Shown: positions 17,258 to 23,495, numbered from the stretch's first letter. The stretch: 64,000 nucleotides of DNA from Nitrosarchaeum sp. (GCA_965223865.1 OZ245020.1:1792001-1856000); one strand, 5' to 3'. Notes: generated by a model not told the origin, from the sequence alone. Numbers and translations: made by a program.

Positions 17258-18166
17258 CTATTGCTCCAAGTTTAATGGAATAGATGCACTTCCATACGGT
17301 TCAGAGATTCTAAAGACATAATCTTTTGAAGAATCATAGATGAATTGTGTTCCACCATATCCAATATTTGGACCAAACAACATGTTGAATATTGCAGACT
17401 CTCCAGATTTCAGAACAATTTGCCCATTTGTAAAATCCATGCCAGAATACTTGAATGCCTTTTCACCATTCCAAACATCATAGTTACATACAGCAGGACC
17501 AGTACACATCATGGAAATATTATCTGATGAGCCATTATTTTCAGCTAGCATTCTAATTGAAAGAATTGCCTGACCAGATGGAGAAATTTCAAATGAATTT
17601 CCTTCACTTCCAAGATCGGCCCAATAATAAGTCAATGGTCCTACTTGGAAAGACTGACCATTTGTTTTTATTTTGTAAGCTTCAATTTGATGCTCAGCTG
17701 CTTTTTCACAGTTTAGTCTAGGATATGCTTTAGTAATCTCAGAACATTTTTCAAGCTCTGTTTCAAGGGAAGCTAATTTTGAATCATTAGTTGCTGATTG
17801 CATTGGAGCTTCAACTACAGGTTCAGAAGTTGAAACAGAGACAATACCAGTTTTTATCAGATGTTGAATTCCGTTAACAAATTCACCATCAGAAATTGTT
17901 CCATCAGCCCACCATCCTGCATTGTTTTTTACCCAAGCTGGTACACCTTCAGACGATTCAGCAGATACTGTTGTTGGAGGAACTACAATAATACCATCTT
18001 CTATAAGGAATTGAATCCCTTGTACAAATTCTGATTCAGAAATTGTTCCATCAGCCCACCATCCTGCATTGTTTTTTACCCAAGCTGGTACTTCTTCAGC
18101 ACTTGCAAAAGAAGTAATTGATCCTACTAAGAGAATTGCTGCAATTGTGGTTATTGTGGTTTTCAT
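17258..18166 (-). CDS. Secreted protein with two thaumarchaeal VPAWVKNNAGWW modules and a C-terminal beta-rich domain
   Basis: Signal peptide ending ASA, two ~49-aa repeats, Cys pairs. Confidence 0.85.
   Translation of the reverse strand: MKTTITTIAAILLVGSITSFASAEEVPAWVKNNAGWWADGTISESEFVQGIQFLIEDGIIVVPPTTVSAESSEGVPAWVKNNAGWWADGTISDGEFVNGIQHLIKTGIVSVSTSEPVVEAPMQSATNDSKLASLETELEKCSEITKAYPRLNCEKAAEHQIEAYKIKTNGQSFQVGPLTYYWADLGSEGNSFEISPSGQAILSIRMLAENNGSSDNISMMCTGPAVCNYDVWNGEKAFKYSGMDFTNGQIVLKSGESAIFNMLFGPNIGYGGTQFIYDSSKDYVFRISEPYGSASIPLNLEQ
17889..18091. repeat. Intragenic direct repeat of 56 identical bp (17889-17944 and 18036-18091)
   Basis: tcagaaattgttccatcagcccaccatcctgcattgttttttacccaagctggtac occurs twice, 147 bp apart. 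Confidence 0.9.
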
Positions 18167-18188: not shown

Positions 18189-18224
18189 TATTTAAGCTGG
18201 TGCCAATAATTTGTCTAGTGCTAA
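18189..18224 (-). promoter_or_regulatory. Promoter with TTAGCACTA box (secreted protein gene)
   Basis: Minus strand TTAGCACTA-N20-TTAAATA; second copy TTGGCACCA inside the spacer. Confidence 0.7.
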
Positions 18225-18250
18225 ATTTTAAAAGAAATTGTAAAAATATC

Positions 18251-18288
18251 TAGTGGTAAACAAAATTTTCCATATTGGGCTTTTTATG
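18251..18288 (+). promoter_or_regulatory. Promoter with inverted box (DUF1722 gene)
   Basis: TAGTGGTAA-N21-TTTTTATG. Confidence 0.5.
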
Positions 18289-18310
18289 TAATCAACATCA
18301 AATTTGAAAA

Positions 18311-18868
18311 GTGAAGGAAAAGCAAGAATATTCCAATGTAGGATTGCCTGTTATTTCTGAGGATGATGTTAAAAATTATGTATTTGAGAGATTTGAAGAC
18401 GTTAAAAGGTTAAAAAAAATCAAAAATCTCGTGAATTTTCAGGCTATGAATAAGTACATGATAATGGCCCATAACCAAGAGCAACTCAAAAAGCTAGGAA
18501 ACATTGTAGCTAGTTATAAAAAAATCCCCTTTTCAGAAATTTTAGAGAGTTATGAAGAAAATCTAAGAATTGCTCTAAAGAAAAAACCAACCAAGAAAAT
18601 GCATACAAATGTAATTATGCATATTTTTGGACATTTTTCAAAAAAATTGAATCAATCTGATAAAGAATTGTTTTTTCAGTTATTAGAAGAATATAGAAAA
18701 GAAAAGATCAGCTTAGGAGATATTCTTGTAGAAATAAATCCAGTCATATTTAGATTCAACAATACCTATCTAGCTAGTCAGACCTACTTTTTATTATATT
18801 CAAACATTATTCCAGGAATTCCATTTCAATCTCTCAATAATGAAAACGTCATAAAGGATCTAAATTAA
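18311..18868 (+). CDS. DUF1722 (YbgA C-terminal-like) protein
   Basis: LV.FQA.NKY.IMAH....K.LG, H.NV.MH.FG.F, YL..QTY. Confidence 0.85.
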   Translation: MKEKQEYSNVGLPVISEDDVKNYVFERFEDVKRLKKIKNLVNFQAMNKYMIMAHNQEQLKKLGNIVASYKKIPFSEILESYEENLRIALKKKPTKKMHTNVIMHIFGHFSKKLNQSDKELFFQLLEEYRKEKISLGDILVEINPVIFRFNNTYLASQTYFLLYSNIIPGIPFQSLNNENVIKDLN

Positions 18869-18893
18869 AAAAAATAGCAAAAAATAAAATCCA

Positions 18894-18929
18894 TTAGCAC
18901 TATAAAATATAGTTAGCATTAGTTATATA
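18894..18929 (+). promoter_or_regulatory. Promoter with TTAGCACTA box (B12-binding regulator gene)
   Basis: TTAGCACTA-N20-TTATATA; second copy TTAGCATTA inside the spacer. Confidence 0.7.
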
Positions 18930-18950
18930 GTTTAATGAAACAAAAAATTC

Positions 18951-19793
18951 ATGGTATACATTAGAGCAAAGAAAGTAAAATCTGATCAATATCTTTATCT
19001 TGTCAAAAGTGTGTGGGATTCTCAGAAAAATACATCAAAACAAGAAATAATCAAGTATTTAGGAAAAGCATCTGATGTTGTAAAAGATGATATTCCTTCA
19101 GATTACAGAAATGATTCTAAAATATTATCTGTGTTGGCAAAATTTAATCCTAAAGATATTAAAAAAAGAGAAGATGCATCAAAAAAATCAAAACAGCAAC
19201 TATTTAAAAAATTAACAGAAGGAGATATTCAGGCTTCACTAAAGATCTATCAGGAATATACCAAAATTTTTGATACTCCAGATTTTTTTGATAAAATTCT
19301 AAAACCAGTAATGTATAAGATTGGAGACGATTGGGCTACTGGTAAAATCAGTATTGCAACAGAGCATGTAGCAAGTAATGTTGCACAAACCCTTGTTAAA
19401 ATTATAATGGATCAAGTTACTGGAAATGCCAACAAAAAGAAAGTCTTAATTTGTGTTCCTCTTGGAGAGGAACATCATCTTGGTTGTGACGTACTAGAAA
19501 CATATCTTTCAATTAAAGGATTCAAAGTATACAACATGGGAACATCAATGCCCACGGAATCTATTTTGAATTTCATCGATAACAACAATCCTGATGTAGT
19601 ACTATTATCAATAACCTTGGAGGATAATCTATCAGCAGGACAACGACTTGTAAGAAAGATCAAAGAACGATTTAACATTCCAATTTTGGTTGGCGGTTTT
19701 GCAATAGAGGGAGAAAATATCCCAAAGTTTGATGCAAAAATAATACCAAAATCATCACTAGAAGAAATCCCCAAGTTGATTAGAACAGCATAG
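18951..19793 (+). CDS. Cobalamin-binding protein with CarH/AerR-type photoreceptor signature and N-terminal basic beta-sheet domain
   Basis: Helix-bundle motif W-ATGKISIAT-EH (W-x9-EH); Rossmann EEHHLG (ExHxxG), LSIT, LVGG. Confidence 0.85.
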   Translation: MVYIRAKKVKSDQYLYLVKSVWDSQKNTSKQEIIKYLGKASDVVKDDIPSDYRNDSKILSVLAKFNPKDIKKREDASKKSKQQLFKKLTEGDIQASLKIYQEYTKIFDTPDFFDKILKPVMYKIGDDWATGKISIATEHVASNVAQTLVKIIMDQVTGNANKKKVLICVPLGEEHHLGCDVLETYLSIKGFKVYNMGTSMPTESILNFIDNNNPDVVLLSITLEDNLSAGQRLVRKIKERFNIPILVGGFAIEGENIPKFDAKIIPKSSLEEIPKLIRTA

Positions 19794-19801
19794 TTTATTT
19801 C

Positions 19802-21136
19802 TTATTTTTTTAAATAAGATTGTATTTTAGGCATGCAAAGAATAGAGCTATGGGCTGCTGAATCAGTACCTATTCCGTAACTAATAGTAGAATCCCCTAC
19901 AAAAAACAACCCCTTAATGCTAGGAATTTCATGTGGCATTTTTGATTTCCATACCAATCCAGGTTCTTTTACAACTGATTCCACAAGATTCCAAGCCATT
20001 GGGCGTTCCCAAAGTAGTGATTCCTCAAATTGAGGGTAAATCGAAGAGATTTCTTTTTTCATTGTATTTACGATCATACGTATTTGTTTTGGATCATCAG
20101 TGACAGAGGGATCTACTGGAGTTCCAGCAATTATCAAATGTTCTCCCGGAGGAGAAACTGATGAAGTAATGTTTGAAATGAAAAAAATTCCTTTTGTAGT
20201 ATAATTATCACCGACTGGAAAAACTACTTGTCTTGTATCAAGTTGAGATTTTAAGGCAAAATGAACCTCTACTACTGCAGTTTTTTTGTTTAACTTGTTT
20301 ATCTCTTTTACAAATTTTTCATCAAATACATCTCTGTCAAACAATTGATTAATTGCCATGTAAGCAGGGTAAGAAATCACAACACAGTTTGTCGGAATAA
20401 AATCATTACTGTTTGTTACTATTCCTGTTACTTTAGAATTTTCAATAATAATTTTTTTTACAGAGCAGTTTAGCTCAACATTACCATCATTTTCTTCAAT
20501 GTATTGGGCCAAAATTTTTGAAATTGAATCATATCCACCGTCTTCAGGATAAGCAAATTCACTTGTTCCTCCTTTGAAAGGATTGGCACGGATTATTGTC
20601 CTTGCAAATTCACCTAAAGAAATATGATCAACAGTATCAGCAAAAGCCAACATGCATACTGCCTCAAAAAATGCATTTGTTTCAGGATCTAATTTGGAAG
20701 TTATTTCTTTTAGAGAAAGGTTATCCCATTCTTCTGTTTTTTCAATGGAGGTAAAAGCCATCGGGAGAAGTACTTTCAAAAGTTTGATTCTACTTTTTAA
20801 TGGAATCAGAGAAAGGCGTAAAAGGTCATTCATTCCTTTAGGATATTTGTGAAATCCTGAATCAGAATGAAAGGCAATATTGTCAACTTTGGCAAGTTTT
20901 AGTTTTGATTCAATTTCTAATGATTTTAAAACAGTGAAAATTGCAGATTTTTTGTAAAAGGGCATAATATGAAAGCCATTATCTAGAATATGGTTTTTAA
21001 ATTTCATAGAGGCAGTTCTGCCACCTAATTTTGAGGATTTTTCAATAATTCTTACAGGATGTCCTTTTTGTGCAAGCATAGCACCTGTGGTTAGTCCACC
21101 CACTCCTGCTCCAATAATGTAAATGGGTTCCCTCAT
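19802..21136 (-). CDS. FAD-dependent oxidoreductase, phytoene desaturase/amine oxidase superfamily
   Basis: IIGAGVGGL..EK...LGGR, DNGFH, YP.DGG...I, GLFFVGD. Confidence 0.88.
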   Translation of the reverse strand: MREPIYIIGAGVGGLTTGAMLAQKGHPVRIIEKSSKLGGRTASMKFKNHILDNGFHIMPFYKKSAIFTVLKSLEIESKLKLAKVDNIAFHSDSGFHKYPKGMNDLLRLSLIPLKSRIKLLKVLLPMAFTSIEKTEEWDNLSLKEITSKLDPETNAFFEAVCMLAFADTVDHISLGEFARTIIRANPFKGGTSEFAYPEDGGYDSISKILAQYIEENDGNVELNCSVKKIIIENSKVTGIVTNSNDFIPTNCVVISYPAYMAINQLFDRDVFDEKFVKEINKLNKKTAVVEVHFALKSQLDTRQVVFPVGDNYTTKGIFFISNITSSVSPPGEHLIIAGTPVDPSVTDDPKQIRMIVNTMKKEISSIYPQFEESLLWERPMAWNLVESVVKEPGLVWKSKMPHEIPSIKGLFFVGDSTISYGIGTDSAAHSSILCMPKIQSYLKK

Positions 21137-21157
21137 GAATAATTTTTTATTTTTTTC

Positions 21158-21194
21158 TATTTATGCAGGTGCCAAATAATTTACATAGTGCTAA
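21158..21194 (-). promoter_or_regulatory. Promoter with TTAGCACTA box (FAD oxidoreductase gene)
   Basis: Minus strand TTAGCACTA-N21-ATAAATA; second copy TTGGCACCT inside the spacer. Confidence 0.7.
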
Positions 21195-21644
21195 CTATTT
21201 GGACAAATTATAAGAATTAAATTTCTCAGTAGATTTAATAAACTGATCCATTACTGAACTCATCTGATTTGCAAGATAATCTTCTAAGAATCCAAATAAC
21301 TTGAAAAATCCATTTAATCTTAATCTTACATCAATTGAAATAACTGTTCCATCATCAGATTTTACATATGACTCTACAAATACAGTCCCCTTAGTAGGCC
21401 CACTAAGAATATAGATTTCGTGATTTGAGGGTTTTTTAATTACATGTTTTGTTTTTATTTTTAGGGGAATTCCAAGAAATTTTATTTTTTCTAAAACAAT
21501 TTTTTCATTCTTTGTTTGTCTAATGATTTTTAATGATTTAAAATAATCAGGCATTACCTGATGAAAATTTTCGACATCAGTACTTAAATGAAATATTCTT
21601 TCTTGAGATAATGAAGAATTTCTCGTTAGAGTAAAATGTTTCAT
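21195..21644 (-). CDS. SRPBCC/START-fold (polyketide cyclase-like) protein
   Basis: IF.L.TDVEN..Q.MP pattern, GPTKG, C-terminal helix. Confidence 0.75.
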   Translation of the reverse strand: MKHFTLTRNSSLSQERIFHLSTDVENFHQVMPDYFKSLKIIRQTKNEKIVLEKIKFLGIPLKIKTKHVIKKPSNHEIYILSGPTKGTVFVESYVKSDDGTVISIDVRLRLNGFFKLFGFLEDYLANQMSSVMDQFIKSTEKFNSYNLSK

Positions 21645-21647
21645 ATC

Positions 21648-21824
21648 TTAATCACTATTTTCAGATAATGAGAAATTTGTTTGTATATTTTCAAGGTTAT
21701 TGTAATTACTTTTTTTGATTTTCAAGCGAACTAAGGATGAAAGACAAACGTTCAGTTTTTTTGGATTTTCATCAGAATTCAAATTTTTTGTAGATTGGGA
21801 CAGGAAAGACAATTCAGTAATCAT
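21648..21824 (-). CDS. Putative 58-aa microprotein
   Basis: ATG 21824 to TAA 21648, directly upstream of SRPBCC, behind a boxed promoter; low complexity. Confidence 0.35.
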   Translation of the reverse strand: MITELSFLSQSTKNLNSDENPKKLNVCLSSLVRLKIKKSNYNNLENIQTNFSLSENSD

Positions 21825-21840
21825 ACTTTTTTGTTTTTAG

Positions 21841-21876
21841 TATTTATGAAGAAAAGAAATTATTTCATAGTGCCAA
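21841..21876 (-). promoter_or_regulatory. Promoter with TTGGCACTA box (microprotein-SRPBCC unit)
   Basis: Minus strand TTGGCACTA-N20-ATAAATA. Confidence 0.65.
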
Positions 21877-21909
21877 TAATTTGTTATTGTATTAATATTT
21901 AGGAGCGAA

Positions 21910-21945
21910 TTAGCACTAGATTATAATTTTTAGGACATTAAAATA
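21910..21945 (+). promoter_or_regulatory. Promoter with TTAGCACTA box (21968/22133 unit)
   Basis: TTAGCACTA-N19-TTAAAATA. Confidence 0.62.
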
Positions 21946-21967
21946 TCTTAAAAAAGAAAAACAAGCT

Positions 21968-22123
21968 ATGGAAGAAAATCTTTCAATTTCATATGGAGTT
22001 GAATCAGGTTATGCGATGATTGAGAATAAAGAGTTTGGTTTGATTGAAAACATCTCAAAGGTGTTATCTAAAGTAAGAGAACTTGAGAGCCAAACAGCAA
22101 TAGTAATTCAAGTCTCAGGATAA
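21968..22123 (+). CDS. Putative 51-aa microprotein (MEENLSISYGVESG...)
   Basis: ATG 22 bp after a TATA box; protein-like composition; 9 bp before the next ORF. Confidence 0.55.
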   Translation: MEENLSISYGVESGYAMIENKEFGLIENISKVLSKVRELESQTAIVIQVSG

Positions 22124-22132
22124 AAAACTAAA

Positions 22133-22363
22133 ATGAGTAAATTAAAACCATATAGACCAAGCATCATAACAGCATTTGGAGTAATCTTTTTGATTTCAGC
22201 AATAATTATTCCAATTCAAAATTTGATTGTGTGGGGTCCAGATTTTGTGATGGAGTTTTACACATCGTCTCAAATAACTTCAGAGAAAATATCAATTGGA
22301 GTGATTGCATTTGGTCTTGCATTAATTTTGATAGGTTATAAAAAGCAAGTCTATGTTGAATAG
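22133..22363 (+). CDS. Small membrane protein (2 TM)
   Basis: Two hydrophobic segments in 76 aa. Confidence 0.7.
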   Translation: MSKLKPYRPSIITAFGVIFLISAIIIPIQNLIVWGPDFVMEFYTSSQITSEKISIGVIAFGLALILIGYKKQVYVE

Positions 22364-22374
22364 AAGTTTAATAA

Positions 22375-22410
22375 TTACCACTAGTTACAAAAACAAATCT
22401 GGCTTAAATA
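22375..22410 (+). promoter_or_regulatory. Promoter with TTACCACTA box upstream of the second tfb
   Basis: TTACCACTA-N20-TTAAATA. Confidence 0.6.
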
Positions 22411-22589
22411 ATTTTAAAACCAAATTTAATTATGATAGTAAAATCATCTTACCAAGAAAAAAACAGAAATTCATTAGTATATGTAAATTCTAAAATCAAA
22501 ATTTGTATTAATTATAGTAATTACAAAATAAAATTTCATGAGTTTGGAGTATCCTGTAAATATTATGGAGAACCATTTTGGAGGATAAA

Positions 22590-23495
22590 ATGTTAACCGA
22601 ACTTGTGCATCAACAAAATTGCAACAAAAATAAAATAATTACAGATTTAGATACTGGGGAAATTGCATGTAGTAATTGTGGTGCAGTATCACATGAAAAA
22701 CCAATTGAATTTGGACCAGAAATTTCTGGAATTACAAAAGAAGAATATCTTAAAACATCTCGAGTTGGAAGGAAAATTTCATTAAAAATAGCCGATATGG
22801 GCTTATCGACAATAATAGAGTCACAAGATAAGGATGCTACTGGAAAGTACTTATCAAAAGAGAATCGTAGAATGTTTTATCGCCTTCGTATGTGGGATAG
22901 AAATAGTCGTTCTGCAAATACTGTAAAATCATTGCAAAAAGCATTTCTTTTACTTGATGGAATTAGAGCAAAACTTAATCTTCCTGAACCAGTTGTAGAA
23001 CATACAGCCTATCTTTTTAGAAAAATTTCAGCAAAAAAAATTCTTAGCGGCAGAACTACTTCAGGAATTCTTTGTGCTACAGTGTACATTGCATGTAGAT
23101 TAACAAACACACCTAGAACCATACAAGATGTTGCCGATGCTGGAAATATCAAAAGAAAAAACTTACAGAGAATTTACAGATTTTTAATAAAAGAGCTAAA
23201 CATCTTTCCTAATGCATATAATCCACATGAATTTATTACAAGAATTTCAAAAACTATTAGCATTTCAGAAAAAACAGAAAGACTTGCATTTAACATTGTT
23301 TTGTTGACAGAAAAAATAGGAATATCTACAAGCAAGAATCCAATGGCAATGGCAGCAGCATCTATTCATTTGGCATCCTTGAAAAATAATGAAAAAGTTT
23401 CACAATTAAAAATTTCAGAGGCATCAGGTATAAGTGCTGTAACAATTAGGGATCGAGCAAAAGAGATCAAAGAAAGATTAGGAGGTGAAATTTAG
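22590..23495 (+). CDS. tfb: Transcription factor IIB paralog (alternative TFB)
   Basis: Zn ribbon (C..CSNCG), RLRMWD, cyclin repeats, GISAVTIRDR; GGAGG RBS before ATG 22590. Confidence 0.92.
   Translation: MLTELVHQQNCNKNKIITDLDTGEIACSNCGAVSHEKPIEFGPEISGITKEEYLKTSRVGRKISLKIADMGLSTIIESQDKDATGKYLSKENRRMFYRLRMWDRNSRSANTVKSLQKAFLLLDGIRAKLNLPEPVVEHTAYLFRKISAKKILSGRTTSGILCATVYIACRLTNTPRTIQDVADAGNIKRKNLQRIYRFLIKELNIFPNAYNPHEFITRISKTISISEKTERLAFNIVLLTEKIGISTSKNPMAMAAASIHLASLKNNEKVSQLKISEASGISAVTIRDRAKEIKERLGGEI

Follow-up and report, generated by a model that had tools for sequence, protein, structure and literature searches.

The segment from 18,189 to 22,410 of a Nitrosarchaeum sp. DNA stretch of 64,000 nt (C1:1792001–1856000 of a 2.01-Mb genome with 34% G+C; this whole stretch is called the window, and positions are counted from its first letter unless a contig or locus is named) raises the question of which factor reads a short box repeated at a fixed distance upstream of several TATA boxes, and with what effect on transcription. 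The genome encodes archaeal AmoA, and hence the host is an ammonia-oxidizing archaeon. The box, whose consensus is TTRSCACTAK (10 bp) by reading of the window and the genome, mostly forms a tandem direct repeat. We conclude that the motif is genuine, specific, and conserved, and that it is linked to a 280-aa protein of the B12 photoreceptor type encoded in the same island. That the box is the operator of this protein is a well-supported deduction, and its most likely role is that of a switch in a light-controlled circuit not previously described in archaea. With moderate confidence, we propose that the protein is an adenosylcobalamin (AdoCbl) photoreceptor that would act as a dark repressor by occupying the TFB recognition element (BRE) and would be released by light.

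Geometry and specificity of the box promoters

A typical bipartite site comprises, in this order, TTAGCACTAG, a spacer of 8–9 nt, a second box in the version TTGGCACCAG, TTATCACTAG, TTAGCATTAG or TTGGCCCTAG, a gap of 0–2 nt, and the TATA box. The proximal box is localized 18–19 nt downstream of the distal one and ends 0–2 nt from the TATA box, thus covering the BRE position. For five of the six direct sites in the window, the distal box starts 57–58 nt upstream of the start codon; at the sixth, the start codon is at +52, and the open reading frame (ORF) behind it shows no conservation and probably is not a gene. All seven sites listed in a preliminary description of this DNA, six direct and one inverted, are indeed present, as are the three second copies that it noticed near the BRE (18197–18206, 18913–18922, and 21166–21175). 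The promoter elements of the window are the following.

18250–18259, minus strand: third box TTACCACTAG, 35 nt upstream of the distal box of the 302-aa protein gene
18215–18224, minus strand: distal box TTAGCACTAG, promoter of the 302-aa secreted-protein gene
18197–18206, minus strand: proximal box TTGGCACCAG, promoter of the 302-aa protein gene, one base off the TATA box, at the BRE position
18189–18195, minus strand: TATA box TTAAATA, promoter of the 302-aa protein gene; ATG (18166) 29 nt on
18281–18287, plus strand: TATA-like TTTTTAT of the DUF1722 gene, N21 after the inverted box; GTG 30 nt on
18894–18903, plus strand: distal box TTAGCACTAT, B12-protein promoter
18913–18922, plus strand: proximal box TTAGCATTAG, B12-protein promoter, abutting the TATA box
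18923–18929, plus strand: TATA box TTATATA, B12-protein promoter; ATG (18951) 28 nt on
21185–21194, minus strand: distal box TTAGCACTAT, promoter of the flavin adenine dinucleotide (FAD) oxidoreductase gene (desaturase-like)
21166–21175, minus strand: proximal box TTGGCACCTG, FAD oxidoreductase promoter
21158–21164, minus strand: TATA box ATAAATA, FAD oxidoreductase promoter; ATG at 21136
21867–21876, minus strand: distal-only box TTGGCACTAT upstream of a 58-aa ORF and the SRPBCC gene
21842–21848, minus strand: TATA box ATAAATA, followed by the doubtful 58-aa ORF and then by the SRPBCC gene
21910–21919, plus strand: distal box TTAGCACTAG, in back-to-back arrangement with the box at 21867–21876
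21938–21945, plus strand: TATA box TTAAAATA upstream of the 51-aa and 76-aa ORFs; ATG at 21968
22375–22384, plus strand: distal-only box TTACCACTAG upstream of a 54-aa ORF and the TFB gene
22404–22410, plus strand: TATA box TTAAATA upstream of the 54-aa ORF; ATG (22432) 28 nt on

The box at 18250–18259 is inverted relative to the DUF1722 gene and lies 52 nt upstream of its GTG, an arrangement that recurs at loci L040, L041, and L051. Judged by eye, inverted boxes are found upstream of DUF1722 genes 41–52 nt before the start codon at six of seven loci, showing that the orientation of the box is not absolute.

By its number alone, the box would not attract attention: the 9-mer TTAGCACTA with at most one mismatch has 17 matches in the window, compared to 13.7 ± 3.5 in shuffles, and is thus not unusual. 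Eight of these 17 matches, including all four exact copies, fall within 4.2 kb; the signal resides in clustering and geometry rather than in the window-wide count. The genome contains 18 exact copies of TTAGCACTA, ten of them in two islands: four in the island of the window and six in the second one. A box followed by a TATA box at N19–21 has 20 matches in the genome, with 1–11 matches for each of 11 shuffled-core controls. A composite model (a box, another box at 18–20 nt, and a TATA box), trained on sites of this genome itself, yielded seven sites scoring 34–42 bits, none of them outside the two islands, and the best remaining site had 23 bits; on the reversed genome it produced no sites above 25 bits. 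An independent model was built from eight B12-gene promoters of other genomes only, and its top five matches (42.8–20.1 bits, control maximum 18.4) again all belong to the two islands. Full bipartite sites are restricted to these two islands of the genome.

The surroundings of ordinary promoters provide a further point of reference. In 107 ordinary promoters of this genome, the 45 nt preceding the TATA box show no preferred bases, and the distance from the TATA box to ATG peaks at 27–31 nt (68 of 107), which is also the geometry of the box promoters. This peak fits short or absent leaders and lends indirect support to the TATA words as real promoters.

The second island (C1:1430854–1441716, corresponding to L009 3854–14716) lies outside the window and contains four full bipartite sites (34–42 bits). 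It encodes two Usp proteins, the gene of one of which precedes that of a DNA photolyase, two PNPOx-like proteins, a 458-aa protein of the NmrA/short-chain dehydrogenase/reductase (SDR) type, a split TFB paralog, and several ORFs with no family assigned. The preliminary description had asked whether further matches would appear at photolyase or stress genes, and the photolyase, the two Usp genes, and the PNPOx-like genes of this island bear out that expectation.

Outside the islands, single boxes with a TATA box are found at C1:188724 (minus strand), 87415 (plus strand), and 607051 (minus strand), with ORF starts at +58, +48, and +60 and ORFs of 132, 56, and 179 aa, respectively; the 179-aa product resembles an Lrp-type regulator by eye. 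These may be additional regulon members or chance occurrences, given 1–11 such matches in the controls. Weak box matches are also seen at C1:1738524–1738755 in twelve head-to-tail copies of a 21-bp unit with TTTGCACCAG; they have been rejected as an operator, being a tandem repeat.

A B12 photoreceptor-type protein as the candidate reader

To see what accompanies the box elsewhere, we considered 61 genomes of the family to which the host belongs, including this genome (G000), and, for 18 orthologs of the B12 protein, the surrounding 20 kb. Full-length orthologs are present in 24 of the 61 genomes (G000 counted), and in one more genome a stop interrupts the copy. Of the 61 genomes, 22 have the strict bipartite pattern, with two matches in total in the backwards control. 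The two distributions largely coincide: 20 of 25 protein-bearing genomes (the interrupted copy counted) show the pattern, compared to two of 36 genomes without the protein. Both of the latter are dubious, one having a single match and the other six, five of which overlap in a 9-bp tandem repeat. The interrupted copy (G038:C1:1499973–1500332) matches residues 21–135 only and contains a TAG stop, with bipartite boxes nearby (1500423 and 1502815); in this genome the regulator may have been lost recently.

The gene of the B12 protein is located behind a box promoter at all 18 loci of the relatives, directly at 11 of them, and at seven behind a co-oriented, box-preceded gene of the 302-aa protein, with which it is presumably co-transcribed. 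For 15 of 24 orthologs, inspection of the upstream region by eye reveals two boxes and a TATA box, and the identical proximal box TTAGCATTAG is seen in six genomes of several genera, one of them with a G+C-rich flank. In the promoters of the B12 orthologs, the box columns carry 1.0–2.6 bits, and the spacer columns mostly 0.3–0.8 bits (range 0.3–1.2): the box geometry is kept across genera while the spacers diverge.

The same geometry extends to other candidate targets. The most constant box-preceded gene is that of the 302-aa protein (13 of 15 loci with orthologs); boxes are also present at the flavoenzyme (five of five) and at the promoter of the 54-aa ORF and TFB (three of three orthologs). 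Out of 75 strong boxes at the loci of the relatives, 32 are of the distal geometry, in which the TATA box is at +28 to +31 and the ORF begins at +54 to +64 (mode +58), and nine are of the proximal one; for 18000 random positions the respective numbers are 24 and 28. A photolyase of the class found in the second island is encoded in seven of the 61 genomes, six of which have the B12 protein, the seventh genome being 72% complete. It is behind a box promoter in four of six relatives (G020, G047, G027, and G051): it shares an operon with the B12 gene in G020 and with an adjoining DUF1722 gene in G047, and in G027 and G051 a bipartite site precedes it by about 215 nt.

Orthologs of the 302-aa protein also exist in four genomes that have no B12 protein, and none of these four is preceded by canonical boxes; one has two CTGGCACCAA repeats, and two of one genus have GCCACAG repeats. 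In this G+C-rich genus (loci L058 and L059 of G012 and G037), two to three GCCACAG repeats are localized upstream of the ortholog, one of them abutting the TATA box, and could form a different operator at the same place.

The B12 protein itself consists of a β-sheet N-terminal domain (residues 1–40), a bundle of four helices, and a B12 domain of the Rossmann type. Homologs of CarH, according to PMC8156234, are marked by the motifs Wx9EH and ExHx2Gx41SxV/Tx22-27GG, the former being a signature of AdoCbl photoreceptors that does not occur in methionine synthase. Both motifs are found here. The first one (W128-x9-E138-H139) is in the four-helix bundle, invariant in 23 orthologs, and aligned to the respective motif of TtCarH; the second, counted on the translation, reads E173-x-H175-x2-G178-x41-S220-x-T222-x25-G248-G249, with E173, H175, G248, and G249 invariant in the 23 orthologs and S220 conserved in at least 90%. 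The closest PDB sequences to the B12 module are photocobilin (8j2w/8j2x) and Thermus thermophilus CarH (5c8d/5c8e). The structure predicted by AlphaFold, with a mean predicted local distance difference test score (pLDDT) of 89, agrees with this assignment, as Foldseek matches the module to 5c8d, 5c8e, 8c31, and 8j2w with E-values from 3e-13 to 1e-11 and target-normalized template modeling scores of 0.6–0.85. A two-copy complex prediction gave a score of 0.01, compared to the mark of 0.42, and counts neither way on self-association.

The N-terminal domain is of another kind. Its 40 residues are the most conserved part of the protein in 23 orthologs, and the model depicts three long antiparallel strands (pLDDT about 90) and no helix-turn-helix. 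A MerR-type winged-helix domain was not found, residues 1–70 having no Pfam match even at E 10, and a search of the ESM Atlas with residues 1–60 returned only scores of 0.82, which is the chance level. A profile of the domain retrieved 498 proteins at E ≤ 0.001; out of ten scanned against Pfam, one is a DDE transposase, one an HNH endonuclease, one AbiEii, one another B12 fusion, and six have no significant family. These architectures support a nucleic-acid-binding role of the domain, and the B12 protein is the only conserved product of the island with a plausible nucleic-acid-binding module.

Proposed action at the promoters and competing explanations

The position of the proximal box suggests the direction of control. 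As this box ends 0–2 nt from the TATA box and covers the BRE read by TFB, a factor bound there should block initiation. A box over the BRE in archaea usually means repression. CarH acts in a comparable way at bacterial promoters, where in the dark an AdoCbl-bound tetramer occupies three to four tandem direct repeats overlapping the promoter (PMC8156234). The coverage of the BRE taken together with this match to the action of CarH favors a dark repressor released by light, and an asymmetric box, one small β-sheet domain per protein, and two to three tandem boxes fit a multi-headed oligomer.

Under this proposal, each 10-bp box (TTRSCACTAK) would be read by one N-terminal β-sheet domain. In the dark, the AdoCbl-bound B12 protein would oligomerize via its CarH-like module, and the oligomer, anchored on the strong distal box, would also occupy the position 18–19 bp downstream, that is, the BRE beside the TATA box, where it would block the assembly of TFB and TBP. 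Light would cleave the cofactor, the oligomer would dissociate, and about a dozen promoters would open, driving the genes of the regulator itself, photolyase, Usp, the flavin and SDR oxidoreductases, the PNPOx-like and secreted proteins, and the TFB paralog; the latter may in turn drive a second tier of genes. We infer that the B12 protein binds the box, oligomerizes, responds to light, and represses rather than activates. The preliminary description had suggested an operator of the B12 protein, with autoregulation, and this stands as the best-supported reading, given the co-occurrence in genomes, the 18 of 18 B12 loci preceded by boxes, and the CarH motifs, with the binding itself presumed.

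Several observations weigh against this proposal. Among 46 distal-position sites, 31 have a second box on the BRE and 15 have no recognizable proximal box; we use this raw split with no p-value, since the proximal-box background, drawn from those very islands, includes real sites (95th percentile 10.7 bits). The 15 distal-only sites, among them the conserved promoters of TFB and SRPBCC, keep the rigid distance to the TATA box and fit an activator at least as well, though a strong distal box could anchor the oligomer so that its second head reaches the BRE regardless of the sequence there. Inverted boxes, both at the DUF1722 promoters and in the palindromic pair at L009 3797, also fit poorly. 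Five protein-bearing genomes do not have the strict pattern and have 11-nt (e.g., TTAGGCA) or otherwise variant boxes. In this genome, no canonical site was found directly upstream of the photolyase operon, where the only box is inverted and imperfect, 126 nt upstream of the Usp start; no box was found near the photolyase in G048 and G009. The related genomes are not independent, so our counts describe a pattern and do not constitute a test, and the co-occurrence overstates the support. Finally, the N-terminal domain has no significant fold match in PDB by Foldseek (best E-value 0.47), and it is the domain architectures that suggest its binding to DNA.

The same protein and boxes might instead form an activating system, in which the protein, bound distally in its light-state or dark-state form, would recruit TFB and TBP; we consider this unlikely. 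Fixed-phase upstream sites are typical of archaeal activators, as the preliminary description pointed out, and the spacing is indeed rigid, with the ORF start at +57 to +59 for 27 of the 32 boxes of distal geometry; the distal-only sites, with the TFB and SRPBCC promoters among them, point in the same direction. However, at the 31 sites with a second box on the BRE a bound factor would compete with TFB, and the characterized CarH-type receptors are all reported to be dark repressors (PMC8156234). The step from fixed spacing to an activator is doubtful, with a second box on the BRE at about two thirds of the sites, and the rigid distal-only sites keep some room for activation.

It is likewise improbable, in our estimation, that the box is the operator of another regulator, the B12 protein being merely co-regulated, or that the protein senses cobalamin supply and not light. 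Such a reading draws on several island ORFs with no family assignment and on the N-terminal domain having no significant fold match. Against it, this protein is the sole conserved product of the island with a module plausibly suited to nucleic acids, and the box tracks its presence across genomes. Further points against it are the Wx9EH motif, which according to PMC8156234 marks AdoCbl photoreceptors and does not occur in methionine synthase, and the photolyase within the putative regulon.

The preliminary description had also considered an element read together with the local TFB paralog. In this case the box would be a promoter-class element for a dedicated TFB and the proximal box a special BRE, which we regard as very unlikely. 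The proximal box is exactly at the BRE position, TFB paralogs are encoded in both islands, and box-preceded TFB paralogs recur in G003, G030, G047, G027, and G051. However, an identical second box 18–19 bp upstream and a third box are left unexplained, and the promoter of the TFB gene itself has the distal box only. Moreover, orthologs with at least 57% identity are present in five of 60 relatives, and the strict box pattern in 21 of 60 (22 of 61 with G000); one of the five, G009, is 72% complete and has no full-length B12 ortholog, whereas the box-bearing G054, G020, G045, and G041 have only matches at about 40–45%, the level of ordinary paralogs, and the TFB of the second island is split into two ORFs. 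The distant orthologs (49–50%) in G027 and G051 are located about 226 nt behind a box promoter. As TFB orthologs are few, a box promoter recurrently precedes TFB, and the TFB promoter is distal-only and itself box-bearing, the idea of TFB as a co-reader is weakened, and the paralog looks like a recurrent target and a probable regulon member, which suggests a second regulatory tier.

A chance repeat or a remnant of a mobile element is rejected, since the boxes are kept in genera that differ in the spacers and in the downstream genes.

Known systems and neighboring genes

The candidate dark repressor shares several features with the CarH/LitR systems (TtCarH, 5C8D/5C8E; Myxococcus, Bacillus): the B12 module with Wx9EH and ExHx2Gx41SxTx25GG, its fold (Foldseek E-value about 1e-12), a candidate operator composed of tandem direct repeats overlapping core promoter elements, and candidate targets that include the regulator's own gene and photoprotection genes. 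On the other hand, the archaeal protein has no MerR winged helix and carries instead a three-stranded β-sheet N-terminus with no Pfam or PDB match; its boxes are 10 bp long and 18–19 bp apart, compared to contiguous 11-bp repeats of CarH; the promoter is of the BRE/TATA type and not sigma-70; the Trp of Wx9EH is not followed by His; and the host is an ammonia-oxidizing archaeon. As the MerR domain is missing, we describe the system as CarH/LitR-like and place it outside that family.

Photocobilin of Saccharothrix syringae (8J2W/8J2X) is the top match of the B12 module and similarly combines a CarH-type module with a non-MerR partner, but the partner domain is not the same, and photocobilin action is not known to involve a DNA operator. 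A TFB paralog in a radiation-linked control circuit, the ultraviolet-induced TFB3, is also known from Sulfolobus (PMC6101591). TFB3 is truncated and serves as a co-activator after ultraviolet damage; here, in contrast, the TFB paralog is of full length and follows a box promoter, accompanied by a regulator of the photoreceptor type.

Our literature search, limited to abstracts and freely accessible text, found no archaeal CarH-like or light-sensing regulator and no description of such a box. Light inhibits ammonia-oxidizing archaea, which are also major marine producers of cobalamin. With confidence falling a little short of even, we suggest that the locus represents the first archaeal light-sensing transcription circuit, in which an AdoCbl photoreceptor with a new β-sheet DNA-binding domain would use tandem 10-bp boxes to gate BRE/TATA promoters of Nitrosopumilaceae in a two-tier cascade with photolyase, genes of photo-oxidative stress, and a dedicated TFB paralog. 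If true, this would make the photoinhibition of marine nitrification accessible at the molecular level and would add to the B12 photoreceptor family a new DNA-binding fold, which may serve optogenetic tools. The proposed regulon is small and concrete, with a single protein, about a dozen promoters, and a stretch of 36 bp to serve as a probe; its predicted response to light is of the on/off kind.

The genes of the window island are arranged as follows; NCBIfam yielded nothing above cut-offs for ten island proteins.

17258–18166, minus strand: gene of the 302-aa protein; no Pfam or NCBIfam match
18311–18868, plus strand: DUF1722 gene, 185 aa
18951–19793, plus strand: gene of the B12 protein, 280 aa, the regulator candidate
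19802–21136, minus strand: gene of the flavin amine-oxidase/phytoene-desaturase superfamily, 444 aa; NCBIfam matches all below cut-offs
21195–21644, minus strand: SRPBCC gene
21648–21824, minus strand: doubtful 58-aa ORF, not conserved
21968–22123, plus strand: 51-aa ORF
22133–22363, plus strand: 76-aa membrane-like ORF
22432–22596, plus strand: conserved 54-aa ORF, overlapping the start of the TFB gene
22578–23495, plus strand: gene of the TFB paralog, 305 aa

The 58-aa ORF has no tblastn match at the 18 loci of the relatives, the closest one included, and the box promoter at 21876 probably drives a leader of about 180 nt to the SRPBCC gene. The 54-aa ORF is kept in three relatives with 44–65% identity.

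Three features of the second island deserve mention. A 91-aa ORF (L009 5956–6231, minus strand), 51% identical to residues 78–157 of the B12 protein, consists of the four-helix bundle only, without the DNA-facing or Rossmann domain, and could be a modulator or a gene remnant. The TFB paralog (L009 13247–13453 and 13591–14124, minus strand) falls into two ORFs separated by 137 nt, one of 177 aa for the N-terminal part and one of 68 aa for the C-terminal part; it is about 60% identical to the TFB of the window and may be a broken gene. At L009 3797–3854 (minus strand), an inverted half-site replaces the direct proximal box and forms a perfect palindrome, CACTAG-N6-CTAGTG, and the ATG at the usual distance opens a frame of 14 codons only.

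The 302-aa protein has, by eye, an N-terminal signal-like stretch and two repeats. Its residues ~20–115, containing the two repeats of about 45 aa, match at least 12 other ORFs in every genome of the family, and by these matches the repeat is a widespread domain in these archaea.

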